A DNA stretch of 64,000 nt. Origin: Candidatus Omnitrophota bacterium (GTDB lineage: Bacteria; Omnitrophota; Gorgyraeia; Gygaellales; Profunditerraquicolaceae). Shown one piece after another: positions 6,483 to 62,193 of the stretch. The notes under the pieces are model-generated. The model was not told the origin of the DNA. It worked only from the letters and a program-made list of their open reading frames with translations, and ran no database searches. A program made the position numbers and the translations under genes. The first letter of the stretch is position 1, and each line of letters begins with the position of its first letter. The stretch spans positions 13,977-77,976 of the forward strand of contig JAQTQJ010000009.1 in the NCBI GenBank assembly GCA_028712255.1, given 5' to 3'.

Positions 6483-6487
6483 TAACA

Positions 6488-6538
6488 CACCCCGCGCTTA
6501 TAAGGAATTGCGCGGGTGTGCCCTTAGGGGCAAGGAGG
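6488..6538 (+). promoter_or_regulatory. Recurrent structured leader motif, copy 1 (upstream of tuf)
   Basis: Hairpin 1: CACCCCGCGC, loop TTATAAGGAATT, GCGCGGGTG. Hairpin 2: TGCCCTTAGGGGCA. Followed by AAGGAGG, 9 nt before the ATG. Confidence 0.6.
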
Positions 6539-6547
6539 ATAAAAGAT

Positions 6548-14149: not shown

Positions 14150-14153
14150 GTTA

Positions 14154-14205
14154 CACCCGGCGCTAAGCGGGATTGCGCCGGTGTTCCGCTTGTGCGGAAG
14201 GAGAG
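14154..14205 (+). promoter_or_regulatory. Recurrent structured leader motif, copy 2 (upstream of rpsH)
   Basis: Hairpin 1: CACCCGGCGC, loop TAAGCGGGATT, GCGCCGGTG. Hairpin 2: TTCCGCTTGTGCGGAA. Followed by GGAGAG SD. Stem sequences differ from copy 1 but remain complementary. Confidence 0.6.
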
Positions 14206-14209
14206 TTAA

Positions 14210-20236: not shown

Positions 20237-20240
20237 TATA

Positions 20241-20290
20241 CACCCCGCGCTAATTGGTATTGCGCGGGTGTTGTCTAGGTAGACAAGGAG
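20241..20290 (+). promoter_or_regulatory. Recurrent structured leader motif, copy 4 (upstream of rpsK)
   Basis: Hairpin 1: CACCCCGCGC, loop TAATTGGTATT, GCGCGGGTG. Hairpin 2: TTGTCTAGGTAGACAA. Followed by GGAG SD. Confidence 0.6.
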
Positions 20291-20300
20291 ATAAAATAAA

Positions 20301-24177: not shown

Positions 24178-24251
24178 ATAGGCTGTAAGTTGTAAGTCGA
24201 AAGTTTTAAGCTTAAAGCTTACGACTTATAGCTTAAAACTAAAGTTATTTT
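24178..24251. repeat. TAAGC-hexamer / AAGCTT-palindrome intergenic repeat, copy A
   Basis: GTAAGTTGTAAGTCGAAAGTTTTAAGCTTAAAGCTTACGACTTATAGCTTAAAAC. Contains inverted TAAGTCG/CGACTTA arms. Confidence 0.6.
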
Positions 24252-25508
24252 ATGGCCAAGACAATTGCAGAAAAAATTTTAAGTAAACATGCCGGTAAAG
24301 ATTTGAAGGCGGGTGACTTTGCTGTTTGTAAAGTAGATTTTACTTTTGGCCAGGATGGTACCTCCTCGATAATAATTGATCGCATTAAAGAGCTGGGTAT
24401 AAAGAAATTAAAGACTTCATTTTGTATGGTAATTGACCATAGCTCTCCAAGCCCTAGTGAAGGGGTTTCTCGTGTACATAAGAAGATGCGCGATTTTTCA
24501 CGGGATTTTAAGACAGAGATTTTTGATATTGGTTGTGGAGTATGCCATCAGGTTATTCCTGAATCCGGCAAAATCCTTCCCGGGAATCTGATTTTAGGAG
24601 CGGATTCCCATACCTGTACTTATGGAGCCCTTGGCGCATTCTCTACCGGTGTAGGGTCGACGGATTTAGCTATAGCTTTATCTACAGGGAAGAATTGGTT
24701 TAAGGTTCCTGCAACTATAAAAATTATAGTTCAGGGTAAGCTTAAAAGTGGCGTTTTTGCTAAGGATGTAATTTTACATATAATCGGTAATTTAAAAAGC
24801 GACGCAGCCACATATAAAGCAGTTGAATTTTACGGCCCTGTGATTGATAATATGGGAATGGATGGGCGTTTTACTATTGCTAATATGTTAGTTGAAATGG
24901 GGGCAAAAGCAGGCTTTATGCCGGTTGATAAAAAAACTGTTACTTGGTTAAAACCTAGAATTGCCAAAGGAGTGCGTATTGAAAGTATTGCGGCGGATAA
25001 AGGGGCTATCTATGAGAGTGTTTACGAATTTGATGTTTCTACGCTTGGCCCGATGGTTTCTATGCCGCATAGTGTAGATAATACCGCAGAGGTTACTTCT
25101 CTGAATAAGGTAAAAATTGATGAGGCTTTCTTGGGGACCTGTACTAATGGCAGAATAGATGACCTTGTGGTTGCGGCAAGAGTTTTAAATAAAAGAAAAG
25201 TTTCCCCGGCAGTCAAATTAATTATTGCTCCCAGCTCACGTGAAGTTTATCTGGAGGCTTTAAGGCTCGGGTTAGTCGAGATGTTTATTAAAGCTGGTGC
25301 TTGTATTGTAGCTCCAGGTTGTGGCCCTTGCGTAGGAACGCATAACGGAATTCCTAGCGATGGAGAAGTAGTGATTTCAACTGCTAATCGTAATTTTAAA
25401 GGCAGGATGGGCAATCCTGCGGCATTTATTTATTTAGCTTCTCCGGCTACAGTAGCAGCTTCTGCGCTGACCGGTTTTATAACTGACCCCAGAGTTTATT
25501 TTAAGTAA
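24252..25508 (+). CDS. leuC: 3-isopropylmalate dehydratase / homoaconitase large subunit (archaeal-type LeuC, ~420 aa)
   Basis: Aconitase-family motifs (GADSHTCTYGALGAF, CGPCVG, TANRNFKGRMG). leuD follows two genes downstream. Confidence 0.85.
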   Translation: MAKTIAEKILSKHAGKDLKAGDFAVCKVDFTFGQDGTSSIIIDRIKELGIKKLKTSFCMVIDHSSPSPSEGVSRVHKKMRDFSRDFKTEIFDIGCGVCHQVIPESGKILPGNLILGADSHTCTYGALGAFSTGVGSTDLAIALSTGKNWFKVPATIKIIVQGKLKSGVFAKDVILHIIGNLKSDAATYKAVEFYGPVIDNMGMDGRFTIANMLVEMGAKAGFMPVDKKTVTWLKPRIAKGVRIESIAADKGAIYESVYEFDVSTLGPMVSMPHSVDNTAEVTSLNKVKIDEAFLGTCTNGRIDDLVVAARVLNKRKVSPAVKLIIAPSSREVYLEALRLGLVEMFIKAGACIVAPGCGPCVGTHNGIPSDGEVVISTANRNFKGRMGNPAAFIYLASPATVAASALTGFITDPRVYFK

Positions 25509-25535: not shown

Positions 25536-26582
25536 ATGGAAATTCGCGATTTACTTTTGATGTGTAATGAAAACGGAGCTTCGGATTTACATATTACGGA
25601 AAATGAACCTCCGGTTTTACGAGTCGATGGTAGATTATTGCGTACACAACTGGAAAAATTAGATAAGCAGAGCCTAAAGAAAATGATTTATAGCGTTCTT
25701 TCTAATACCCAGAAAGAGATTTTCGAGCGTGAACTGGAACTCGACTTTTCTCTTGCCCTGCCTGATTTAGACCGTTTTCGAGTGAATGTCCATTTACAAA
25801 AAGGTTCAGTTGAGGCGGCATTTCGCCGTATCCCCAGAGAGATTCCTGCTGTGGAAAAATTAGGTTTACCAAAAATTATATCTGATTTAGCTCGTAGGCC
25901 AAATGGTTTGGTTTTAGTAACTGGTCCTACTGGCATGGGAAAAACCACTACTTTGGCGGCGATGATTGATCTTATTAACGGCGAGCGGGAATGCATGATC
26001 ACCTGTATTGAGGACCCGATTGAATTTATTTATGCCAATAAGAAGAGCATAGTTAAACAGCGAGAGGTTTATTCGGATACACATTCTTTTGCTGATGCCC
26101 TGCGCCATGCCCTTAGACAAGATCCCAATGTTATCGTGGTAGGAGAGATGCGTGATTTAGAAACTATTTCAACTGCGCTGACGGCAGCTGAAACTGGCCA
26201 CCTTGTTTTGGCTACTTTGCATACCCCAGATGCCCCGCAAACTATTTCTAGGATTATCGATGTTTTTCCTCCGCATCAGCAGACGCAGGTTAAATTACAA
26301 CTTTCCGATTGTTTGCAAGGAGTAATTTCACAGCTTTTGCTTCCGCATGCCTCAGGGAAGGGCAGGGTATTGGCTACGGAGGTGATGATAGCAACGGCTA
26401 GTATTCGCAACCTTATCCGTGAACAACAAATTGAACAGATTCCGACAATGATGCAGACTGGCTTACAATATGGTATGAATACCATGGATAGCTGTCTTAA
26501 GGAGTTGACTCAGAAAGGGTTGATTACTTTAGATATGGCTATGTCTAAGGTAAAGAATAGGGAAGAATTCAAACAGCTATGA
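25536..26582 (+). CDS. pilT: type IV pilus retraction ATPase PilT (twitching motility)
   Basis: 348 aa with Walker A GPTGMGKTTT. PilT/PilU-like N and C termini. 4-nt overlap with leuD. Confidence 0.85.
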   Translation: MEIRDLLLMCNENGASDLHITENEPPVLRVDGRLLRTQLEKLDKQSLKKMIYSVLSNTQKEIFERELELDFSLALPDLDRFRVNVHLQKGSVEAAFRRIPREIPAVEKLGLPKIISDLARRPNGLVLVTGPTGMGKTTTLAAMIDLINGERECMITCIEDPIEFIYANKKSIVKQREVYSDTHSFADALRHALRQDPNVIVVGEMRDLETISTALTAAETGHLVLATLHTPDAPQTISRIIDVFPPHQQTQVKLQLSDCLQGVISQLLLPHASGKGRVLATEVMIATASIRNLIREQQIEQIPTMMQTGLQYGMNTMDSCLKELTQKGLITLDMAMSKVKNREEFKQL

Positions 26583-27079
26583 GTATTGCAGGAACTAGCG
26601 TAAAATTAGGGGACAATATAAATACGGATTTTATTATTTCCGGAAGATATAAGTTTGCGATTACGGATATGAAGGAGTTGGCTAAGCATATTATGGAAGA
26701 TATTGATCCGAATTTTCCTCAAAAGATTATTCCGGGTAAAACAATTATTGTAGCAGGTAATAACTTTGGCATGGGGTCAAGCCGTGAACAGGCTCCTTTG
26801 GTAATTAAAGAGGCAGGGATTGTGGCGGTATTGTCACCACAATTTGCGCGTATATTTTTCCGTAATAGTTTTAATATCGGTTTAGCGTTAATTGAAACTG
26901 ATACCAGTAAAATTGATGAGCATGACCAGCTGGAAATTGATTTAAATTTAGGCTTGGTGAAGAATCTAACCAAAGGCATTGATTTAAAGATTAAACCTTT
27001 ACCTAAATTTATGCAGGATTTATTGGCTGAAGGCGGAATAACTAATTATTATAAGAAGCATGGAGAACTTAAAATTTAG
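26579..27079 (+). CDS. leuD: 3-isopropylmalate dehydratase small subunit (archaeal-type LeuD)
   Basis: 166 aa aconitase swivel domain (GNNFGMGSSREQAP). Confidence 0.85.
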   Translation: MSIAGTSVKLGDNINTDFIISGRYKFAITDMKELAKHIMEDIDPNFPQKIIPGKTIIVAGNNFGMGSSREQAPLVIKEAGIVAVLSPQFARIFFRNSFNIGLALIETDTSKIDEHDQLEIDLNLGLVKNLTKGIDLKIKPLPKFMQDLLAEGGITNYYKKHGELKI

Positions 27080-28177
27080 ATGGAATATAAAATAACTTTG
27101 ATTCCCGGAGATGGTATTGGCCAGGAAGTTTCTCTTGCAGCTACTCGATGTATTGACGCTACGGGAGTTAAGATTAAATGGGATACTGTGCTTGCAGGAA
27201 GTGTCGCCTTGGAGAAAATGGGAGAGCTCTTGCCACAGAGCGCATTAGATTCAATCAGGAAGAATAAAGTCGCTCTTAAGGGCCCGATTACTACCCCTAT
27301 TGGCACTGGATTTCGATCGGTAAATGTAGCTATTAGGCAGGCTTTAGATCTTTATGCATGCGTGCGTCCGGCAAAAAGTTATTTAGGAGTAAAAAGTATT
27401 TTTAAAGATATCGATTTGGTCATTATTAGGGAAAATAGCGAAGATCTTTACGCAGGTATAGAATTTGAAGAAGGTAAGCCTGAAACCAAAAATTTAATTG
27501 CTCAGATTCAAAAAGATACCAAGCGGATAATTCGTCAGGATTCCGGAATAACTATCAAGCCTATCTCTAAATTTGCCTCAGAAAGAATTGTAAAGTTTGC
27601 TTTTGAGTATGCTTTAAAGAATAAGCGTAAAAAAGTTACTTGTGTGCATAAGGCAAATATCATGAAATTTACCGACGGACTATTTTTAAAAGTTGCCCGG
27701 GAAGTCGCAGTAAATTATAAAGAAAAGATAATTTTTGAAGAAGCTATTGTAGATAATATTACCATGCAGCTAGTACAGAAGCCGCATAATTATGATGTTT
27801 TGGTGTTGCCCAATCTTTATGGAGATATAATTTCAGATCTTTGCGCAGGTTTGGTTGGTGGTTTAGGGGTTGCTCCGGGGGCCAATATCGGTTCTGATAT
27901 TGCGGTTTTCGAAGCAGTACATGGATCTGCGCCAAAATATCAGGGTCAGAATAAGGTTAACCCAACGGCTATGATTTTATCTGGGGTTTTGATGCTGCGG
28001 TATATTAATGAAGCTAAGGCGGCAGATAAATTAGAAGAGGCGGTAAAAGAGGTAATTAGTGAAGGTAAATTTGTAACATACGATTTAAAAAATGATCCGC
28101 TTGATTCAACTGCTGTAGGTACTGCGCAGATGGCTGATGCGATTATTGAGAAGGTTAAAAAATTAAATAAGGCATAA
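27080..28177 (+). CDS. beta-decarboxylating dehydrogenase (3-isopropylmalate/isocitrate/homoisocitrate dehydrogenase family)
   Basis: 365 aa IDH/IMDH family ([19 protein letters not shown]). Adjacent to leuCD. Confidence 0.8.
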
Positions 28178-28229
28178 GTTATAAGTGATAAGCCTTAAGC
28201 TTACAGCTTGTTTAGATTTTAGAAAACAC
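28178..28229. repeat. TAAGC-hexamer repeat, copy B
   Basis: ATAAGTTATAAGTGATAAGCCTTAAGCTTACAGCTTGTTTAGATTTTAG. Confidence 0.6.
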
Positions 28230-28275
28230 GGGACCGTTTCTATTTTTCTAAATTTAGAAAAATAGAAACGGTCCC
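28230..28275. repeat. 46-nt perfect palindrome (likely bidirectional terminator/hairpin), flanked by GTTT(T)AGATTT direct repeats
   Basis: GGGACCGTTTCTATTTTTCTAAATTTAGAAAAATAGAAACGGTCCC is its own reverse complement. Direct repeats sit at 28210-28220 and 28285-28296. Confidence 0.7.
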
Positions 28276-28314
28276 AAGATTCCAGTTTTAGATTTGTTAA
28301 AAGGGATATTTAGG

Positions 28315-29229
28315 ATGAAAATATCAATTATCGGTGCGGGTAATGTTGGTAGCTTAACGGCAATGCGCATCGCCCAGGATGGATTGGGCGATGTTTTGCT
28401 TATTGATGTGGTGAAGGGTTTAGCGTACGGAAAGTCATTGGATTTAGAGGATGCCCGGCCGCTTTTAAGGTATAATTACAATATTTCTGGCAGTGATGAT
28501 ATCAGCCGAATAAAGGATTCAGATATTATAGTAGTTACTGCAGGCCTGGCGCGTAAACCTGGGATGAGCCGCGAAGAATTGCTAGTTAAGAATGCGCAGA
28601 TTTTAAAAGGGGTATGTTTAAATATAAAAGAACTGGCAAAACAAGCAATTGTTATAGTGGTAACTAACCCTTTGGATATTATGACTCTTTATGCTTTAAA
28701 GATTACTGGTTTTGGCCCTAGTAAGCTTTTTGGCATGGGAATTAGTTTGGATACTGCCCGATTTGTTAACCTAATAGCCGGTGAATTAAATTTACCCGTT
28801 ACGGATATTGAGGCGCTTGTAATTGGCGCTCATGGTGAAACCATGCTTCCTTTGCCAGCTCTTACAAAAGTTAAAGGCGTTCCTTTAGATGAGTTTATTC
28901 ATGATGAAAAAATTAAAACTTTAGTCAGCCGTACTGTTGGAAGAGGTGCTGAAATTGTTGCCAGCCTTGGTACAGGTAGTGCATTTTTTGCTCCTTCAGC
29001 TGCAGTTTCGGCAATCGTTAAAACAATAGTAAAAGATGAAAAACGTATCATTGGCTTATGTAGTTATCTAAATGGCCAATATGGTATTAATGACAGTTGC
29101 CTTGGTGTTCCCTGCCGCCTGGGAAAGAATGGCATTGAGCAGATTATTGAATTGGATCTTTCAGTCGATGAAAAAGCTAAGCTGATCAAATCAGCCAAAC
29201 TTGTTACTCAGGCAGCAGCACAATTATAA
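28315..29229 (+). CDS. mdh: malate/L-lactate dehydrogenase (LDH-like MDH)
   Basis: Rossmann GAGNVGS. ATG 28315 with a plausible SD. The ORF-track start at 28294 is TTG. Confidence 0.85.
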   Translation: MKISIIGAGNVGSLTAMRIAQDGLGDVLLIDVVKGLAYGKSLDLEDARPLLRYNYNISGSDDISRIKDSDIIVVTAGLARKPGMSREELLVKNAQILKGVCLNIKELAKQAIVIVVTNPLDIMTLYALKITGFGPSKLFGMGISLDTARFVNLIAGELNLPVTDIEALVIGAHGETMLPLPALTKVKGVPLDEFIHDEKIKTLVSRTVGRGAEIVASLGTGSAFFAPSAAVSAIVKTIVKDEKRIIGLCSYLNGQYGINDSCLGVPCRLGKNGIEQIIELDLSVDEKAKLIKSAKLVTQAAAQL

Positions 29230-30851: not shown

Positions 30852-30875
30852 TCGGCAGCTGATTCCGTTAAAAAT

Positions 30876-30919
30876 AAGGGGATGGTTCTCTTAAGCAAGA
30901 GAACCATCCCCTTATTTTT
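30876..30919 (+). terminator. rho-independent terminator
   Basis: About 16-bp stem AAGGGGATGGTTCTCTT/AAGAGAACCATCCCCTT, loop AAGC, then TTATTTTT. Confidence 0.85.
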
Positions 30920-30933
30920 AACTAAGATTTTAA

Positions 30934-35341: not shown

Positions 35342-35394
35342 AAGATAAAGTTTATTGACAAATTAGAATGGAGTGTTAAAGTAATTAAGACAAT

Positions 35395-35600
35395 TTAGTG
35401 ATACAGGTTAAGGGAAATCCGTTTGGCCACAAGGCCATGGTTTGGCACAAAAAAGCCAAAGCCAGAAATCGGATGCGGTCCCGCCGCTGTAAAAGTTGAC
35501 GAAAGCTGCTAGCAGATAAAAGCCACTGTACTATGGAAATTAGTATGGGAAGGCGCAGCAAGTAGGATAAGACTTAAGCCAGAAGACCTGCCTGTATAAA
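35395..35600 (+). promoter_or_regulatory. cobalamin (AdoCbl) riboswitch
   Basis: GGGAAATCCG region and CCGCCGCTGTAAAAG. B12 box AGCCAGAAGACCTGCC at 35578-35593. A possible hairpin/U-rich expression platform lies further downstream at ~35643-35690. Precedes btuFCD-cobCUTS. Confidence 0.6.
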
Positions 35601-35689
35601 GAAAGTAATGCCTCGTGGAAGGGCCATAGTATTATCAGGGTGAAGCCCGATCCAGGTACCAGGAGTACCAGGTTCGGGTATTTTATTTT

Positions 35690-36517
35690 ATGAAGAAAAC
35701 TATTTTTCTAGCCGTATTTTTTGGTTTATTTTTTTACTCCACGGCTTTTGCGTATGCGCGCTATATCAGCCTTGCTCCTTCTACAACCGAGATACTTTTT
35801 GCTTTAGGGTTAGATGAAGAGATTGTGGGGGTAAGCTCGTATTGTAACTATCCGGCGCAGGCAAAAAACAAGAACAGGATTGGGGATTTTAGTAGTCCTA
35901 ATATTGAGAAGATAATTTCATTAAAGCCGGATTATATTTTTTGTACCGGCCTTGAGCAAGCGCCAGTAATTACACAGTTAAAACAGCTCAAACTTAATGT
36001 TTATGTCGCCGACCCGGTAAATGTCGAAGAGTTGTTAAAAACAATCAAAGAAATAGGAGAGATAACCAAGAGAACAAGTCAAGCAACTGTATTGATTCAA
36101 CAGATGAGAAACCAGATTCAGGCAGTAACTTCGAAGGTAGAACTTATTCCACAGGGAAAAAGGATTAAAGTTTTTCTTGAGATTTGGCATGAGCCATTAA
36201 TGACTGCGGCGGGTGGCTCTTTTGTTGACGAGTTAGTTACTCTAGCAGGAGGGATTAATATTGCTCATGATTTACCACGGCCATATTGCAGTTTTAGCGC
36301 TGAAAGTGTAATTAGCCTTAATCCTCAATGCATTATCCTGGCGTATATGGATAAGGAGGCTCCTTTAAAATTAATTAAACAGCGTTTTGGCTGGGAAAGA
36401 ATCGATGCCGTAAAGAATGGGCGGATATTCAACGATATTGATCCGGATATTTTACTTCGGCCCGGCCCAAGAATTACCAAAGGGCTTAGTCAAATTTATA
36501 AAAGATTGTACCAATAA
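35690..36517 (+). CDS. btuF: periplasmic corrinoid/siderophore-type ABC substrate-binding protein (BtuF-like)
   Basis: Signal peptide and class III PBP fold. Riboswitch-controlled, followed by FecCD permease and ATPase. Confidence 0.7.
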   Translation: MKKTIFLAVFFGLFFYSTAFAYARYISLAPSTTEILFALGLDEEIVGVSSYCNYPAQAKNKNRIGDFSSPNIEKIISLKPDYIFCTGLEQAPVITQLKQLKLNVYVADPVNVEELLKTIKEIGEITKRTSQATVLIQQMRNQIQAVTSKVELIPQGKRIKVFLEIWHEPLMTAAGGSFVDELVTLAGGINIAHDLPRPYCSFSAESVISLNPQCIILAYMDKEAPLKLIKQRFGWERIDAVKNGRIFNDIDPDILLRPGPRITKGLSQIYKRLYQ

Positions 36518-44947: not shown

Positions 44948-45772
44948 ATGAGTTCTCAGAGTAATCTTCGTAAGCCTGCTGTAGCCGGGCAATTTTATCC
45001 GTCAAGCGCAGAAGGCCTTAATTCAATGATCGCTTCTTTTGCGGATACGAAAACGCAGAAAAGTGATTGTTTAGGAGTAATCCTTCCTCATGCTGGATAT
45101 ATCTATTCCGGAAAAGTCGCTACCCAGATTATCTCTGGAATAAATATAAAAGAAAATATAGTTCTTCTGGGGCCCAATCATACAGGCCGGGGGGCTGTTT
45201 TTAGCATAATGACTCAAGGATCTTGGCAGACTCCGTTGGGTAACTTAGAGATTAATTCTAAACTTGCAAATTTATTATTGAGCAAATCCAGATTCTTGAA
45301 AAATGACTCCTTAGCGCACCAGGATGAGCATTCCTTAGAAGTTGAGCTGCCTATATTACAATATTTCAGGAGAGACTTTAAGATTGTTCCAATTGCTATG
45401 ATGACTGATGATTTGTCTATGCTTAGTGAAGTGGCGGAAAGTTTAGCAGAGGTAATTAATGAGAACGATCTTAAAAATTCTACCATGTTTATTGCCAGTT
45501 CAGATATGACACATTATGAATCGCAAAAGAGCGCGCAAAGTAAAGATGCGCTGGCAATTGAAGCGATAGTTACTTTAGATGAATATAGGTTAGAATTACT
45601 TGTTAAGAAACTGAGTATTTCTATGTGTGGTTTTGCTCCGGTTGCAGTTTTAATAAAAGCAGCTAAGCTGCTCGGAGCTAAAGGGGCTAAGTTAATTAAA
45701 TATCAAACTAGCGGCGATGCCACTGGTGATACAAGCAGTGTCGTAGGCTATGCCGGAATCACAATTTATTAA
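44948..45772 (+). CDS. MEMO1-family protein (AmmeMemoRadiSam system protein B-like)
   Basis: Memo signature VAGQFYP...ILPHAGYIYSG. Confidence 0.8.
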   Translation: MSSQSNLRKPAVAGQFYPSSAEGLNSMIASFADTKTQKSDCLGVILPHAGYIYSGKVATQIISGINIKENIVLLGPNHTGRGAVFSIMTQGSWQTPLGNLEINSKLANLLLSKSRFLKNDSLAHQDEHSLEVELPILQYFRRDFKIVPIAMMTDDLSMLSEVAESLAEVINENDLKNSTMFIASSDMTHYESQKSAQSKDALAIEAIVTLDEYRLELLVKKLSISMCGFAPVAVLIKAAKLLGAKGAKLIKYQTSGDATGDTSSVVGYAGITIY

Positions 45773-45775
45773 ACT

Positions 45776-46165
45776 ATGGATGAGATAAATAAATCAGAGA
45801 ATAACGGTTTGGCTTCTGATACTCAAAATCGGAAAAAAATTGATGAAAGCTGGAAACAGGCAGTAGAAAAAGAAAAGCAGGAGCCGCAAGATAAAAAAGG
45901 TTTTGTTCCTCCTGAAGCAGATTTTAAATTTTTTATCACCACTTTGACTCTCCAGGCTTCTATTGCCCTGGGACATATGGCAAATCCATCAAGCGGTAAG
46001 GTTGAGAAAGATCCTGCTCAAGCAAAATTCCTTATTGATACATTAGCCATGTTAGAGGAGAAGACCAAAGGTAATCTTACCAAGGAAGAGATGGATCTAT
46101 TAGAGAATTTACTTTACGAGCTGAGAGTAGCCTATCTTGCCAAAGAAGAGGATAAGCCTAAATGA
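45776..46165 (+). CDS. DUF1844-like hypothetical protein
   Basis: 129 aa acidic/K-rich protein of a conserved uncharacterised family. Assignment by recall only. Confidence 0.4.
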   Translation: MDEINKSENNGLASDTQNRKKIDESWKQAVEKEKQEPQDKKGFVPPEADFKFFITTLTLQASIALGHMANPSSGKVEKDPAQAKFLIDTLAMLEEKTKGNLTKEEMDLLENLLYELRVAYLAKEEDKPK

Positions 46166-46314
46166 TCGATAAAGAGTTGCTTGATATTTTGGTTTGCCCT
46201 GCTTGTAAAGGGGATGTGGAATTAAAAGCAAGAAAAATAGTTTGTAAAAAATGCGGTAAAACTTATCCGGTGTCCGACGGAATCCCGATTATGTTAATTG
46301 ATCAGGCACAATGA
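46162..46314 (+). CDS. Trm112-like small zinc-ribbon protein
   Basis: 50 aa: [11 protein letters not shown]...[22 protein letters not shown]. Overlaps both neighbours by 4 nt (ATGA). Confidence 0.7.
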
Positions 46315-46754
46315 TAAAGATTTTGGTTATTCACGGCCCTAATCTTGATCTTCTTGGGAGGAGGGAACCGGCAATTTACGGCCACATAACTTTAGCCAAG
46401 ATCAATCAGATGCTCAAAATCGAGGCTAAGAAAAATAAAGTTACTTTGGTAATCAAGCAATCTAATCATGAAGGCGCTATCGTAGATTTAATTGGTAAGG
46501 CTAAAAAAAATAAATTCCAAGGTATTTTGATTAATCCGGCTGCTTACACCCATACAAGCGTTGCTGTCCGCGATGCTATAGCTGGTTGTGGATTGAACGC
46601 GGTGGAGGTGCATCTTTCCAATATTTATTCCCGCGAGGAGTTTAGGCATAAGTCACTGATTAGCCCTGTAGCAAGCGGTACCATTCTGGGGTTTGGCGCC
46701 AAAAGCTATTTACTGGGCTTGGCCGCTCTTCTTGACTTAATCAATAAAAAATGA
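46311..46754 (+). CDS. aroQ: 3-dehydroquinate dehydratase type II
   Basis: 147 aa. Starts [19 protein letters not shown] and contains HLSNIYSRE. Confidence 0.9.
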
Positions 46755-47812
46755 ATTATCGTTTGAGAAGTATATATCCTGTGTTAAAGCAGAGAAACCT
46801 TGATGCTTTATTAGTGACTTGCCCGGCTAATATATCATATTTGGCGCAAGCGCAAAGCCGGGATTCCTATCTTTTGGTTTCTCCAAAAGAAAATATCTAT
46901 TTTACTGATTCCCGTTATACTGAAGAAGCAAAGATTTTTTTAAAAGGCCAGGCTACTCTTAAAGAGTGTAATGGCCGCGTTTTCTGGCACATTGCTCAAT
47001 CAATTCTTGATTTGAAGTTAGAGAGGGTAGGTTTTGAGGAAAGGAATTTGCCATTTGCGGAGTTTAACAGGATTAAGGAGTATGCAGTAGGAAGTTTCAA
47101 TCTGATTCCTACGCATAGCATAGTAGAAGATAAAAGGGTTGTTAAAGACCCCCAAGAAATCATGAGGATCAAAAAAGCTACCAGTATAACTGCTTTAGCT
47201 TTGGAATATATCGGACAATTTATTGTTCCAGGAATAAAAGAGATAGAGATTGTAGCTGAATTTGAACGTTTCATAAGGTATCAGGGTGCTGGTGGCCCTG
47301 CATTTGATATAATCGTGGCCAGCGGGCCAAATTCAAGCCGTCCACATCATATATCTGGAGAAAGAAAGCTTAAAAATAATGAACCCGTGCTTATTGACCT
47401 GGGAGTTGATTATCAGGGCTATAAATCTGACTTGACAAGGGTTTTCTTTTTGGGTAAAATAAATATTCTTGTGCGGAAGGTTTACGACATTGTTCTTACT
47501 GCTCAAGAATTAGCTATAAAAAGAATTCGGCCCGGAGCAGAAATGGCTCAAATTGATAGAGTTGCGCGTTCTTACATAGCTAAAAAAGGTTATCGTAAGT
47601 ATTTTACCCATAATTTAGGGCATGGTTTTGGTATTGAGGTACATGAAGATCCGCGGATTTCAGGTAACGAAACCAGCGCACTTAAGCCGGGGATGATTTT
47701 TACGGTGGAACCGGGGATCTATTTACCTGGAAAATTCGGAATAAGAATCGAAGATATGGTTTTAATAACAAGAAAAGGATGCGAGGTGTTAAGTGGCTCT
47801 ATCAATAAATGA
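46751..47812 (+). CDS. pepP: Xaa-Pro aminopeptidase (M24B)
   Basis: 353 aa with creatinase N-domain and M24 C-domain. Confidence 0.85.
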
Positions 47813-48359
47813 AATTAAATCAGGGGTAACTATTTTAGTCGATGGTGATGTCTACGTTTGCCTTGACGCTCAGCATGTCAAGCCCGGTAAGGGGGCAGCT
47901 TTTGTGCGAGCGCGCCTGCGTAATATGAAAAATAATAATATCCAGGAGAAAACCTTCCGCGGAGATGATAAGATAGAACAGGCTTTTATTGAGGAACGAA
48001 AGTTGCAATATCAATATTCAAGCGGTGGGATGTTCCATTTTATGGATACTGAAAATTTTGAAGAGATTGCTATTTCGCAAGAGAGTGTTGGAGATAATGC
48101 CAAACTCCTGAAGGATAATCTTGAGATTCAGGGTTATTTTTATAAAGGCCAGACCTTATCCATTACTTTGCCCAATTTTATTGAATTCAATATTATCGAA
48201 ACTGAGCCGGGTATAAAAGGCGATTCATCAAAGAGTGGGACAAAACCTGCTACTGTTGATACCGGCACAACTATCCAGGTTCCTTTATTTATTAATGTAG
48301 GAGACAAGATCAAAGTAGACACGCGAACCGGTGGCACCTATGTTGAGAGGATTAATTGA
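47793..48359 (+). CDS. efp: elongation factor P
   Basis: 188 aa with KPGKG loop and three OB-like domains. Confidence 0.9.
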   Translation: MALSINEIKSGVTILVDGDVYVCLDAQHVKPGKGAAFVRARLRNMKNNNIQEKTFRGDDKIEQAFIEERKLQYQYSSGGMFHFMDTENFEEIAISQESVGDNAKLLKDNLEIQGYFYKGQTLSITLPNFIEFNIIETEPGIKGDSSKSGTKPATVDTGTTIQVPLFINVGDKIKVDTRTGGTYVERIN

Positions 48360-48480
48360 GTTTAAACTCTAAATAAGCTCTAAGCCATAAGCGATAAGCT
48401 GTAAGCTTACAGCTTAAAACTTACAACTTAAAGCTTTTGTTTTGAAGTTTTGAGTTTTAGTGTTTTAGAATTTAAGGATT
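48360..48480. repeat. TAAGC-hexamer / AAGCTT-palindrome intergenic repeat, copy C, plus GTTTTRAG octamer tandem
   Basis: AAATAAGCTCTAAGCCATAAGCGATAAGCTGTAAGCTTACAGCTTAAAACTTACAACTTAAAGCTT, including the 20-nt perfect palindrome AAGCTGTAAGCTTACAGCTT (48396-48415). Followed by GTTTTGAAGTTTTGAGTTTTAGTGTTTTAG. Confidence 0.65.
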
Positions 48481-48507
48481 ATTAACAAATAAGAAAGAAG
48501 GTGTGGG

Positions 48508-48963
48508 GTGAACATTAAAGAGATCAAAGAAATGATTAATTTAATGAATGAGAATAGCCTTGCTGAATTGGAGGTAGAGAAGGATGGTATGCGTATCCGC
48601 CTTAAAAAAACAGCCAGCGGTTTTGAGGGTTTCGAAGGCCCGGTTCTTTTACAGGGACAAGGTGTAGCTAATCAGCCTAAGGTTGGGGGAATACAGGAGC
48701 CCATAGAGAAGAATGAAATTAAAACAGTTGAGATTAAATCTCCTATGGTGGGCACATTCTACCGGGCACCAAATCCTGAAGCCCCTGCTTATGTAGAGGT
48801 TGGACAGAATATCGAACCGGGCCAGGTAATTTGTATTATTGAAGCGATGAAATTAATGAATGAGATAAAATCAGAGATTAAAGGCAAGATTCTTGAGATA
48901 CTAGTGGATAACGCTGAGCCGGTAGAATTTGGCCAGCCTTTATTTCTTATCGAGCCACTTTAG
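48508..48963 (+). CDS. accB: acetyl-CoA carboxylase biotin carboxyl carrier protein
   Basis: C-terminal biotinyl domain with EAMKLMNEI. GTG start. Confidence 0.85.
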   Translation: MNIKEIKEMINLMNENSLAELEVEKDGMRIRLKKTASGFEGFEGPVLLQGQGVANQPKVGGIQEPIEKNEIKTVEIKSPMVGTFYRAPNPEAPAYVEVGQNIEPGQVICIIEAMKLMNEIKSEIKGKILEILVDNAEPVEFGQPLFLIEPL

Positions 48964-48973
48964 TCAATAAACG

Positions 48974-50335
48974 ATGTTTTCTAAGATTCTCATTGCTAAC
49001 CGAGGCGAAATCGCCTTAAGAATAATCCGCGCCTGTCATGAGATAGGTATTCGTACTGTAGCTGTTTATTCTCAGGCGGACCGCAATAGCCTGCATGTGC
49101 GTTTTGCCGATGAGGCAATTTGCATCGGCCAGGCGTCTTCCACTAATAGTTATTTAAATATCCCCGCCATTATCAGTGCAGCTGAAATCACCGATGTCGA
49201 AGCAATACATCCTGGGTATGGGTTTTTAGCTGAAAATGCTCATTTTGCTGAAATATGTCAATCCTGTAAAATTACATTTATCGGGCCAACTCCTGAGAAT
49301 ATGCGCCTTATGGGTGATAAGATGGCTGCCCGCACCACAATGCAAAAGGCGGGGTTACCAATAGTTCCTGGAAGCCGGGAAGTTATTAAAAATAAGGAAG
49401 AGGCGCTTAAAACTGCCAAGTCAATTGGTTATCCTATAATTATCAAAGCGGCAGCCGGTGGCGGTGGCAAGGGTATGCGTATTTGCCACAATGATTTAAC
49501 TTTAGTTTCCAGTTTATTAACTGCTCAGACCGAAGCAGAAGCAAATTTTGGTAATTCCAGCGTTTACATTGAAAAATATATTGAAAGGCCGCGCCATATT
49601 GAAGTGCAGATAATTGCTGATGCTTCAGGCCATATTGTACAGTTAGGGGAAAGAGATTGTAGTATTCAGAGGAGGCATCAGAAATTACTCGAAGAATCCC
49701 CATCGCCTGCAGTAGATAGTAAGATGCGCCGTAAATTAGGTGAATTGGTTTTAAAAGGGATGAAATCAATTGGTTATGTTAGTTGTGGAACGATTGAGTT
49801 TTTGCTTGATGAAAAAACCGGCAATTTTTATTTTATGGAGATGAACACGCGGATTCAGGTAGAGCATCCGGTTACCGAAATGGTTTGTGGTATAGATTTG
49901 ATTAAAGAGCAGATCCGGGTTGCTGCCGGAGAGAAACTTAAATTCACCCAGGAAAGTATTCAGCTTAAAGGAGCGGCAATTGAATGCCGCATTAATGCTG
50001 AGGATCCAGATAATAATTTTATGCCTTGTCCCGGAAAGATTGAAACCTTAGTTCTTCCTGGAGGGCCGAATGTCCGCGTAGATACACATATTTACGCCGG
50101 ATATGAAATACCTCCTTATTATGATTCTTTGGTGGCTAAACTTATTGTTTATGGCACTAACCGTCAGGAAGCGATCAAGACTATGCGCCGGGCTCTAAGT
50201 GAATTTTATATTGCTCCTATTAAAACCACCGCGCCATTTCATCTTAAACTAATGGATAACCCTTTGTTTCGAAGGGGTGATATCTCTACACATTTTGTAC
50301 AAGATTTATTAGTAAGCGAAGGGAAGCCAGAATAG
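48974..50335 (+). CDS. accC: biotin carboxylase
   Basis: 453 aa ATP-grasp fold with typical AccC termini. Confidence 0.93.
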
Positions 50336-50695
50336 ATGAACCGTGATGAATCAAGGAATGATTTAGGAGTTGTTAAGATTCATAAAAATGTAATTTCATC
50401 CATCTCTTCTATTGCCGCTACGGAGATTGAAGGGGTCAAGCGGGTAGCCAGTAATTTAAAAAACGGTTTGCTTAAGGTTATTGGACAGAAATTCTCTTCG
50501 GCGATAAAAGTAGATATCTCTAAGAATGAAGAGGTAAAAGTTGAAATTCCTTTAATTATTAAATATGGTTATAATATTCCGGATGTTGCCTGCCGTGTGC
50601 AAGAAAATGTCCGTGCGGCACTAGAAAAGATGAGCAATCTTTCCGTAAAAGATATTAATATAAATGTGCGGGGCATAGAAAGGGGCGAGCAATGA
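50336..50695 (+). CDS. Asp23/Gls24-family (alkaline shock) protein
   Basis: 119 aa Asp23 family. Followed by an AmaP-like membrane anchor. Confidence 0.75.
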   Translation: MNRDESRNDLGVVKIHKNVISSISSIAATEIEGVKRVASNLKNGLLKVIGQKFSSAIKVDISKNEEVKVEIPLIIKYGYNIPDVACRVQENVRAALEKMSNLSVKDININVRGIERGEQ

Positions 50696-52444: not shown

Positions 52445-52467
52445 GAAAGCGTAAAATATAAACCTAT

Positions 52468-52517
52468 CACCCAGCGCTAAGTGGAATTGCCGCTGGTGTG
52501 CCCTTGTGGGTAAGGAG
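52468..52517 (+). promoter_or_regulatory. Recurrent structured leader motif, copy 6 (upstream of gmhA)
   Basis: Hairpin 1: CACCCAGCGC, loop TAAGTGGAATT, GCCGCTGGTG. Hairpin 2: TGCCCTTGTGGGTA. Followed by AGGAG. Confidence 0.55.
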
Positions 52518-52522
52518 AAAAA

Positions 52523-62119: not shown

Positions 62120-62193
62120 AATTTGATTATAAGCTTTAAGCTGTAAGTTTTAAGCTATAAGCTTAAGGGTTATCGCTTGCAGCTTACTTAAAT
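62120..62193. repeat. TAAGC-hexamer intergenic repeat, copy D
   Basis: ATAAGCTTTAAGCTGTAAGTTTTAAGCTATAAGCTTAAGGGTTATCGCTTGCAGCTTACTTA. Confidence 0.6.

Follow-up and report, generated by a model that had tools for sequence, protein, structure and literature searches.

Repetitive extragenic palindromic (REP) sequences are defined as units of 20-40 bp with 5-13-bp stems and an unpaired GTAG or CGTC tag, present at high copy number (Di Nocera et al. 2013, PMC3733652). The genes for REP-associated tyrosine transposases (RAYTs) are flanked by REPs or by unrelated terminal inverted repeats (TIRs), and untagged REP-like stem-loop families without a known transposase occur in Mycobacterium tuberculosis, Deinococcus radiodurans, Bordetella, Brucella and cyanobacteria (Di Nocera et al. 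2013, PMC3733652). An exact 46-nt palindrome was analysed at positions 28230-28275 of a 64-kb stretch of DNA (contig JAQTQJ010000009.1; "the window" hereafter means this whole stretch of 64,000 nucleotides) from Candidatus Omnitrophota, an uncultured and poorly characterised phylum. The palindrome lies between a gene of the isocitrate/isopropylmalate dehydrogenase family (Iso_dh) and a malate/lactate dehydrogenase gene (mdh). It probably belongs to a non-coding, REP-like family of palindromic repeats that is dispersed in genomes of Candidatus Omnitrophota; this family was previously undescribed and groups with the REP-like and miniature palindromic repeat class.

The palindrome reads GGGACCGTTTCTATTTTTCTAAATTTAGAAAAATAGAAACGGTCCC and is exact, as a first-pass annotation of the window had claimed; it is formed by two 23-nt arms that are 100% complementary with a spacer of 0. 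No match to the arm was found in 100 dinucleotide shuffles, and by naive arithmetic 64 kb would be expected to contain about 1e-9 perfect palindromes of 46 nt. Folded alone, the hairpin reaches -32.1 kcal/mol as RNA and -21.6 kcal/mol as DNA, and the 161-nt region around it has folding z-scores of -6.7 (+ strand) and -8.8 (- strand) relative to shuffles. At Rfam gathering thresholds nothing was matched, and at E<=1 only generic long-hairpin models (eukaryotic miRNA precursors) were hit, far under their cut-offs. A literature search with the arm sequence returned unrelated primers only, and searches on Omnitrophota palindromic repeats returned nothing relevant and no description of the phylum's repeat content.

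Further copies were found by scanning public genomes, one per species, with the pattern GGGACCGTTTC-N4-34-GAAACGGTCCC, which represents an 11-nt stem base; the hairpin provides its own complement, and the pattern effectively specifies 11 bases only. At least 127 matches at no fewer than 120 loci were obtained, with at least 66 non-redundant copies at Omnitrophota-type loci. Among the matches listed, at least 27 copies belong to the metagenome-assembled genome (MAG) JAHIKK01, at least 9 to JAUYBI01, and 3-5 to each of CAYHRM01, CAZKXY01, JAUSED01, JAZDEW01 and JAKLQX01; JAQTPA01 carries a variant arm, GGGACCGTTTCCCTAT. The copies are extragenic, many per genome and placed at non-homologous loci. 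Nearly all lie between called open reading frames (ORFs), and 5 of the 53 placed copies fall inside crude, probably spurious ORF calls. Two other MAGs (L017:6719-6764 and L120:203-248; L numbers denote loci) have the identical 46-mer between argG and argH, and further copies sit between argF and argG and between dapA and dapB. Coding DNA of these MAGs is only 73-78% identical to the window, so the element is far better conserved than its surroundings. In viral contigs, two solo arms were seen in apparently coding DNA, and no palindrome. One contig with the same repeat family (L062, CAYHRM010000067.1), labelled 'uncultured Planctomycetales', has 73-78% DNA identity to window 44959-50658, and the CAYHRM01 MAG is probably an Omnitrophota relative. 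Unrelated phyla have multi-copy hairpin families of their own with the same 11-nt stem base (CAKPNI01 loci L009, L013, L027, L032, L040, L106 and others; USOM01; JACRKZ01): gut Clostridia MAGs contain nested GGACCGTTTCTTTTTCCATT-GGGACCGTTTC... units, and in an Armatimonadetes MAG the core is flanked by TGACACCGTTTCTG. Single matches in Streptomyces, Kribbella, Prevotella and others were set aside as ordinary terminators that carry no weight as family members.

Sites without the element were found as well, so that both the additional copies and the empty sites that the first-pass annotation had suggested looking for are now at hand. In the window, 137 nt separate the Iso_dh stop (28177) from the mdh start, and the palindrome lies in this spacer; the start is the ATG at 28315, 39 nt past the palindrome, and not the listed TTG at 28294. 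The corresponding junction was compared across 59 orthologous Iso_dh→mdh loci, 3 of them reached through Iso_dh homologues and the others through mdh in metagenomes. The spacer is 0-8 nt in 31 of the 59 and at most 35 nt in 45, and the short junctions include relatives with 81-90% Iso_dh identity (L003, L131, L133, L148). The sequence at 28230-28275 is present at none of the 59. Longer junctions hold assorted hairpins, of the TAAGC type (L138, L144, L149), of CTAAA/TTTAG low-complexity DNA (L001, L132) and of several unrelated families. A sister variant of the stem is found at two further junctions: in L002 it reads GGGGACGGTTCTCTTG-AGAA-CAAGAGAACCGTTCCC and is followed by a T-run, and in L151/L152 it overlaps the stop codon of Iso_dh and consists of GGGGACGGTTCTGTTTTTC, a centre of 17 nt, GAAAAATAGAACCGTCCCC and TAGATTTTAAG. 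Because most junctions are 0-8 nt long and the others contain mixed hairpins, the ancestral Iso_dh→mdh junction is a tight operon junction, essentially without intergenic DNA, which different hairpins entered in different lineages. The window element and the adjacent TAAGC hairpin have thus been inserted between two operon genes, into a junction absent from most relatives.

This tight ancestral junction also bears on two readings in which the palindrome would have arisen in place. The first-pass annotation had offered a protein-binding operator for a dimeric regulator; as a locus-specific site, a conserved mdh operator, this is ruled out, since most orthologous junctions have no intergenic DNA to hold it. 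The second is a locally evolved intrinsic (bidirectional) terminator, or an mRNA-stabilising hairpin ending the Iso_dh unit, that would stand outside any repeat family. It is very unlikely, even with a position 3' of a gene, a very stable stem, a minus-strand call in the consensus terminator scan and canonical hairpin-plus-T-run terminators at the same junction in L002 and L180. Dozens of unrelated loci have the same 19-nt arms, and the 46-mer itself occurs elsewhere, which excludes an independent origin; the sense strand has no U-run after the stem (AAGAUUCC); the ancestral junction of 0-8 nt implies co-transcribed genes, and no promoter-like site for mdh was found in the spacer. Some copies of the family may nevertheless have acquired a terminator-like function by exaptation.

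The anatomy of the family can be described from its dispersed copies. Arms of 18-19 nt, GGGACCGTTTCTATTTTTY, with the consensus GGGACCGTTTCTATTTTT(C/T), surround a variable, rapidly changing centre. Arm positions 12-19, which lie outside the search pattern, are conserved in sequence and kept complementary: they are paired in 425 of 448 cells, and 41 of the 64 deviations from the arm consensus at these positions are mirrored on the opposite arm. Unit length is bimodal. The long form (53-55 nt) has a non-palindromic centre of 15-17 nt with loose subgroups such as YYGAGYCYARTDCTA and CTTCG..., and the short form (41-48 nt), which includes the window copy, is often perfectly palindromic around (T)AAATTT(A). 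A T8/T7 indel, symmetric on both arms, separates L085:3149 from its orthologue L120:4790, and both copies remain perfect; at another orthologous site, L007 has the short form and L060 the long one. The centre therefore changes by slippage and deletion with the palindrome kept. Lineages switch between the arm variants GGGACGCTCCTATTT, GGGGACGGTTCT and GGGGTCAGATTTATTTTTC, and the sister variant GGGGACGGTTCT... is found at L002:2047-2082, L151:2845-2899 and L152:40-69. A second perfect palindrome in the window (Table 1) is built on a sister stem variant; it lies where the mdh-lpd-lipoyl gene group ends, upstream of an HD-GYP gene, and has its A-run and T-run within the stem. In relatives, a TTGACA...TATAAT-like promoter of the HD-GYP gene is conserved.

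Flanking bases probably belong to the unit in part of the family. The seven bases on either side are fully complementary in 15 of 50 copies (AATAAA/TTTATT, AATAAT/ATTATT). The subfamily of the window copy has asymmetric flanks, AAAAC(A/C)N ... RAGATTYY(CAG), which recur in short-form copies at unrelated loci (two in L017, two in L120, and one each in L085, L091 and L062); in the window copy the flanks of the GGGACCGTTTCTATTTTTC hairpin can also be written AAAACA / GAGATTTCAG. Given this flank conservation within the subfamily, the full window unit is probably 28223-28285, oriented along the direction of transcription.

The first-pass annotation had read the direct repeats beside the palindrome as the signature of an insertion of the type of a miniature inverted-repeat transposable element (MITE) with target-site duplication. 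Near-identical repeats are present as it stated, GTTTAGATTTTAG at 28210-28222 and GTTTTAGATTTG at 28285-28296, and they have the exact 9-mer TTTAGATTT in common, but this pair does not abut the palindrome and stands off from it by gaps of 10 and 11 nt. The 9-mers lie within TTTAG-rich low-complexity DNA of the type that forms whole hairpin arms at this junction in L001 and L132, and for this reason the pair is not accepted as a target-site duplication; in an alignment, the right-hand copy falls on the right arm of the hairpin at the L001 junction, immediately 5' of the conserved ribosome-binding region AAAAGGGATATTTAGRATG. The longest word common to the 30-nt left and right flanks was determined for 50 copies and compared with all mismatched left/right pairings. 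Common words of at least 7 nt were about as frequent in the copies (12%) as in the controls (10.7%), and words of at least 8 nt occurred in 10% (5/50) against 3.4%; about 1% (1.1%) of control flank pairs have common words of at least 9 nt. The few long words vary in position and nature, one being a tandem arm duplication and others A/T-rich flank symmetry, and flanks more often extend the palindrome than repeat directly. At the equivalent boundaries, a duplication is absent from the subfamily members in L017, L085, L091 and L120, the window copy being the exception. The family makes no consistent target-site duplication.

Part of the MITE-like claim stands, since the palindrome is repeated, inserted and apparently mobile; the target-site duplication does not, because it is not a property of the family. 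A classical MITE would be a deletion derivative of an insertion sequence with a DDE transposase, its arms being the TIRs and TTTAGATTT or TTTTAG the duplicated target. A multi-copy element with inverted termini, the 9-nt direct repeat around the window copy, TTTTAG abutting both ends if the unit is 28223-28285, and the slight excess of flank words of 8 nt or more all fit such an origin. It is nonetheless improbable: no duplication of fixed length flanks the 50 copies, existing repeats differ in position and sequence, and flanks are complementary rather than direct in the 15 copies described above. No autonomous parent element with the same TIRs was found in the 454 kb around the copies. The 23 JAHIKK01 loci around 27 copies yielded neither a related full-length insertion sequence or other longer element ending in these termini nor a multi-copy protein, a transposase included. 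Correia-type MITEs of Neisseria are 100-150 bp long, duplicate TA and derive from the ends of DDE transposons; when transcribed, they can influence transcription as a terminator or an RNase III substrate. The Omnitrophota family is similar to them in being non-coding, intergenic and multi-copy with inverted termini, but its unit is about 45-70 nt, it makes no duplication and no parent element was found around its copies.

Two further readings take the arms as recognition sequences. In one of them, the repeat would be a genome-wide binding site for a host protein, with arms conserved because each copy is bound, on the model of IHF, gyrase and Pol I, which bind bacterial interspersed mosaic elements in E. 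coli, or of a chromosome-organising protein at its sites; its narrow form is the mdh operator discussed above. Arm sequence is conserved, beyond pairing, between genomes with 73-78% coding identity, and the dyad symmetry suits a dimeric binder. Yet the broad form leaves the arrival of identical 19-mers at new loci unexplained and still needs a copying mechanism, no candidate protein was identified, the swapping of arm variants by lineage is the pattern typically left by selfish repeat turnover, and most orthologous mdh upstream regions leave the narrow form no room. Binding of this kind is an unlikely explanation. In the other, the arms would be DNA-uptake-type sequences in inverted pairs that double as terminators. 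The DNA uptake sequence of Neisseria is a short over-represented self-recognition word in transformation, often present in such pairs. Inverted pairs at gene ends and a nearby gene for a PilT-like ATPase would agree with this. However, 69 copies in the 454 kb are paired, and solo arms number only 14. Nearly all of the solo arms adjoin a hairpin (tandem duplications of arm and flank) or form one side of a hairpin whose other arm has a mismatch; no stand-alone solo arm was found in coding DNA in these 454 kb, and the conserved unit of 19 nt per arm plus flanks is far longer than uptake sequences. An uptake role is thus extremely improbable.

A dispersed REP-like repeat is the reading that we retain, and the family resembles the REP and REPIN elements of E. 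coli and Pseudomonas. Both are short extragenic palindromes, many per genome, mostly after genes or inside operons; both come in lineage-specific variants whose arms are better conserved than their loops, form partial copies in tandem and lack target-site duplication, and RAYT-like Y1 transposase genes, single-copy and syntenic, exist in the phylum that carries the element studied here. The differences lie in the hairpin itself. Omnitrophota units are 36-55 nt long; their perfect stems measure 12-23 bp (18-23 bp in most) and reach up to about 26-30 bp where the flanks pair, as opposed to the 5-13-bp stems of REPs (PMC3733652). They are bordered by AATAAA/TTTATT, AATAAT/ATTATT or AAAACAN/RAGATTY without a GTAG or CGTC tag, and each forms one long hairpin and not, as in REPINs, a dimer of small hairpins. 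Moreover, the RAYT-like gene of Omnitrophota is flanked by another repeat, which is GTAG-tagged. Because stem length and tag differ and the RAYT-like gene has other flanks in Omnitrophota, and distribution, copy number, absence of duplication and turnover agree, the family belongs with the untagged REP-like repeats. It has in common with them dispersed palindromes, no conserved terminal tag and no identified transposase; it is a different sequence family in a different phylum, and the likeness is one of description.

Hairpin shape and absent target duplication are the grounds on which an HUH/Y1 enzyme is proposed: the element would spread as a single-strand hairpin recognised by a RAYT-like transposase of this type acting in trans. 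Mobilisation in trans by such an enzyme is a tentative best guess, somewhat less likely than not. Two Y1_Tnp proteins were found among all ORFs of the loci examined. The Omnitrophota Y1_Tnp (L049:945-1631, 228 aa) has a Pfam match at 5e-15 and scores 62 bits with NCBIfam REP_Tyr_transpos, under the 80-bit cut-off, versus 23 bits with IS200; its sole PDB match, a weak one (E = 0.2), is E. coli TnpA-REP 4ER8. Homologues of the Omnitrophota protein number in the thousands, and its synteny (rpsA-tyrS-[Y1_Tnp]-brnT/A or PQ-loop gene, then rmlA) holds down to 64% identity. In this, the protein behaves as a vertically inherited RAYT would. Its gene is often followed by BrnT/A or ParE toxin-antitoxin genes. 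Copies of the tyrS-adjacent gene bounded by GTAGACAGTTTACGTAAC-type repeats are seen at L049:824-1670, L124:9880-10725, L126:9363-10210, L128:9880-10725, L210 and L215; the bounding repeats are also given as GTAGACAGT, and paralogues are flanked by GTAGACGCTTTA or AAGACGCTGTTGATAA. Repeats of the GTAGACAGTTTACGTAAC type also form a gene-less doublet of about 120 nt (L128:4786-4905).

Three other associations were looked for and rejected. A RAYT flanked by the GGGACC hairpin was sought in Omnitrophota, and five syntenic orthologues and three paralogue contexts all have other inverted repeats. Between paired hairpins, the intervening ORFs are argG, genes for a Cys/Met-metabolism enzyme and a YhcG-family nuclease and others of the kind, and not a transposase. 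As for a cognate-substrate link, GACCGTTTCT in the arm and GACAGTTTAC in the RAYT-flanking repeat agree at 7 of 10 positions, which is too weak, and do not co-vary across lineages. In a gut MAG of Clostridia, a Y1_Tnp that is 34% identical to the Omnitrophota one has CGTATT-GGGGACGGTTCTTTTCGCGAAAAGAACCGTCCCC-AATACG on both sides (L106:792-835, L040:7955-8000), and this MAG has its own multi-copy GGGACCGTTTC / GGGGACGGTTC hairpins. As an association with the element family, this RAYT flanked by a sister hairpin is suggestive only.

The placement of copies relative to genes points to possible effects on transcripts. Copies lie between co-directional genes in 27 cases, convergent genes in 11 and divergent genes in 1, often inside biosynthetic operons and often 1-30 nt from the adjacent coding sequences. 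A T-rich tail (at least 5 T in 8 nt) is present in 9 of the 11 convergent copies on the sense side and in 9 on the antisense side. Among 25 co-directional copies, it is present in 8 on the sense side and 22 on the antisense side, with 17 discordant copies having it on the antisense side versus 2 on the other (sign test p = 7e-4); the sense-side tail differs between convergent and co-directional copies (Fisher p = 0.01). Copies between convergent genes look exapted as bidirectional terminators. They are similar to Rho-independent bidirectional terminators in their G+C-rich stem base and in the A-run before and T-run after the stem of many copies, especially at convergent genes, but terminators have short and idiosyncratic stems, whereas here one 19-nt arm is reused at dozens of loci.

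For the window copy, the stem is followed on the + strand by AAGATTCC, with no U-tract on the transcribed strand, and the T-rich tail is found on the - strand only (GTGTTTTC), where the terminator scan makes its call. Since the sense strand has no U-tract, the copy is probably not an efficient sense terminator. The suggestion of a strong bidirectional terminator in the first-pass annotation hence suits the copies between convergent genes and not the window copy, which lacks this tract and sits at an ancestrally tight operon junction. In the transcript, a 21-bp stem of -32 kcal/mol would form between the Iso_dh and mdh cistrons, and this intercistronic hairpin may hold back 3'-exonucleases or be cut in RNase III-type processing, either being judged more likely than sense termination. 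A perfect stem of 21 bp is a plausible RNase III substrate. Antisense termination may also be possible, with GUGUUUUC placed 3' of the stem on the minus strand.

A wider reading, which is doubtful, would unite these features in a cross-phylum superfamily of long-stem repeats with the stem base GGGAC(C/G)GTT(T)C, mobilised in trans by one vertically inherited clade of RAYT-like Y1/HUH enzymes and with copies sorted by context. It would take in the multi-copy families of Omnitrophota, gut Clostridia MAGs and an Armatimonadetes MAG; hosts would keep copies between convergent genes as bidirectional terminators, and in operons the copies would be sense-permissive hairpins that block antisense transcription or serve RNase-III-type processing.

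Several points weigh against the interpretation developed here, from the repeat family to its mobilisation and its effects. The window holds only one copy of this exact family, as no second copy of the 28230-28275 arm was found in its 64 kb, even at 3 mismatches. Lone matches in unrelated phyla are expected by chance, and only multi-copy families carry weight. No hairpin-flanked transposase was found in the 454 kb around the 69 copies. The Y1_Tnp gene at tyrS is flanked by GTAG-tagged inverted repeats, GTAGACAGTTTACGTAAC / GTTACGTAGACTGTCTAC, and not by the studied hairpin, and these tagged repeats are therefore the more obvious substrate of the enzyme. The hairpin density of the Clostridia MAG is high, about 3 per 8 kb, and two-sided flanking of the RAYT by chance is estimated at about 10%. 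Gene contexts come from a crude ORF caller, and the asymmetry of T-tracts may partly reflect the purine-rich ribosome-binding site 3' of operon-internal copies. The roles at the RNA level are, all of them, deduced from sequence.

Features of the locus are listed in Table 1. The window has 39% G+C, with all sizeable ORFs on the + strand, and protein matches assign it to Candidatus Omnitrophota, the closest relatives being about 85-91% identical in protein; the best matches of Iso_dh are likewise from Candidatus Omnitrophota, at up to 91% identity. The local gene order falls into four blocks: an aminotransferase; an aconitase-family large subunit, a PilT-like ATPase, an aconitase small subunit and Iso_dh; mdh, dihydrolipoamide dehydrogenase and a lipoyl protein; and an HD-GYP protein. 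The PilT-like type II/IV secretion ATPase gene (25536-26582) lies between the genes for the aconitase-family large (24252-25508) and small (26579-27079) subunits, an arrangement also seen in L001-L003.

Table 1. Positions of the palindromes, their flanking repeats and the neighbouring genes in the window
Feature	Position	Strand	Remarks
Element core, perfect 46-nt palindrome	28230..28275	.	19-nt family-conserved arms GGGACCGTTTCTATTTTTC / GAAAAATAGAAACGGTCCC, palindromic centre TAAATTTA
Probable full repeat unit, core plus asymmetric flanks AAAACAC (5') and AAGATTCCAG (3')	28223..28285	+	
Left direct 9-mer TTTAGATTT (inside GTTTAGATTTTAG)	28211..28219	+	judged TTTAG-rich low-complexity DNA, not a target-site duplication
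Right direct 9-mer TTTAGATTT (inside GTTTTAGATTTG)	28287..28295	+	
TAAGC-hexamer hairpin directly 3' of the Iso_dh stop codon	28181..28211	+	separate dispersed hairpin family; same type in L138, L144 and L149 junctions
Upstream gene, isocitrate/isopropylmalate dehydrogenase family (Iso_dh)	27080..28177	+	PF00180, E 4e-104
Downstream gene, malate/lactate dehydrogenase (mdh)	28315..29229	+	Ldh_1_N, Ldh_1_C; conserved ribosome-binding region AAAAGGGATATTTAGRATG
Second perfect palindrome, sister stem variant	30867..30922	.	core GGGGATGGTTCTCTT, 26-nt arms, 4-nt AAGC loop

Other repeats were met in passing. The first-pass annotation had placed the palindrome immediately after a TAAGC-repeat copy, and a TAAGC-type hairpin indeed precedes it. 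Hexamer-repeat hairpins of this type directly follow stop codons at four places in the window (24186-24240, 28181-28211, 48375-48436 and about 62140-62190), and the L062 orthologue of the window spacer 48355-48509 is only about 18 nt long, an empty site for the TAAGC hairpin. At least 15 copies of a perfect palindrome of 26-32 nt, (A)CAGTAGGGGAGGTTTAAACCTCCCCTACTG(T), GTAG-tagged like classical REPs and sometimes in tandem arrays, occur in the same MAGs (L049:2642-2673, L049:4436-4467, L072, L083, L086, L112 and others).

Omnitrophota genomes host several lineage-specific palindromic families, namely the studied element, the TAAGC hairpins, the GTAG-tagged palindromes and a two-hairpin leader described below. 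Such repeats account for recurrent odd intergenic structures, matter to MAG assembly and binning because they break contigs, and are usable as insertion-polymorphism markers. They also make tractable the questions of which enzyme moves untagged long-stem palindromes and of how hosts tolerate or use them inside essential biosynthetic operons.

The two-hairpin leader stands directly upstream of start codons and consists of ACACCCSGCGC-(TNAnnGGnATT)-GCGCSGGTGT and a short variable hairpin whose 3' arm runs into AAGGAG, with ATG about 6-9 nt further on. The window has four copies (6487-6545, 14153-14209, 20240-20300 and 52467-52522), which precede a tuf-like gene and ribosomal-protein genes. In relatives it is found at L130:199, L130:2929, L126:4935, L062, L019, L064 and L214/L215/L217:1593, once within the Iso_dh→mdh junction of L130. 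It has no Rfam match and may be a dispersed leader or translation-control module. Finally, a cobalamin riboswitch (86 bits) lies at 35388-35609 of the window, upstream of a gene cluster that begins at 35690.

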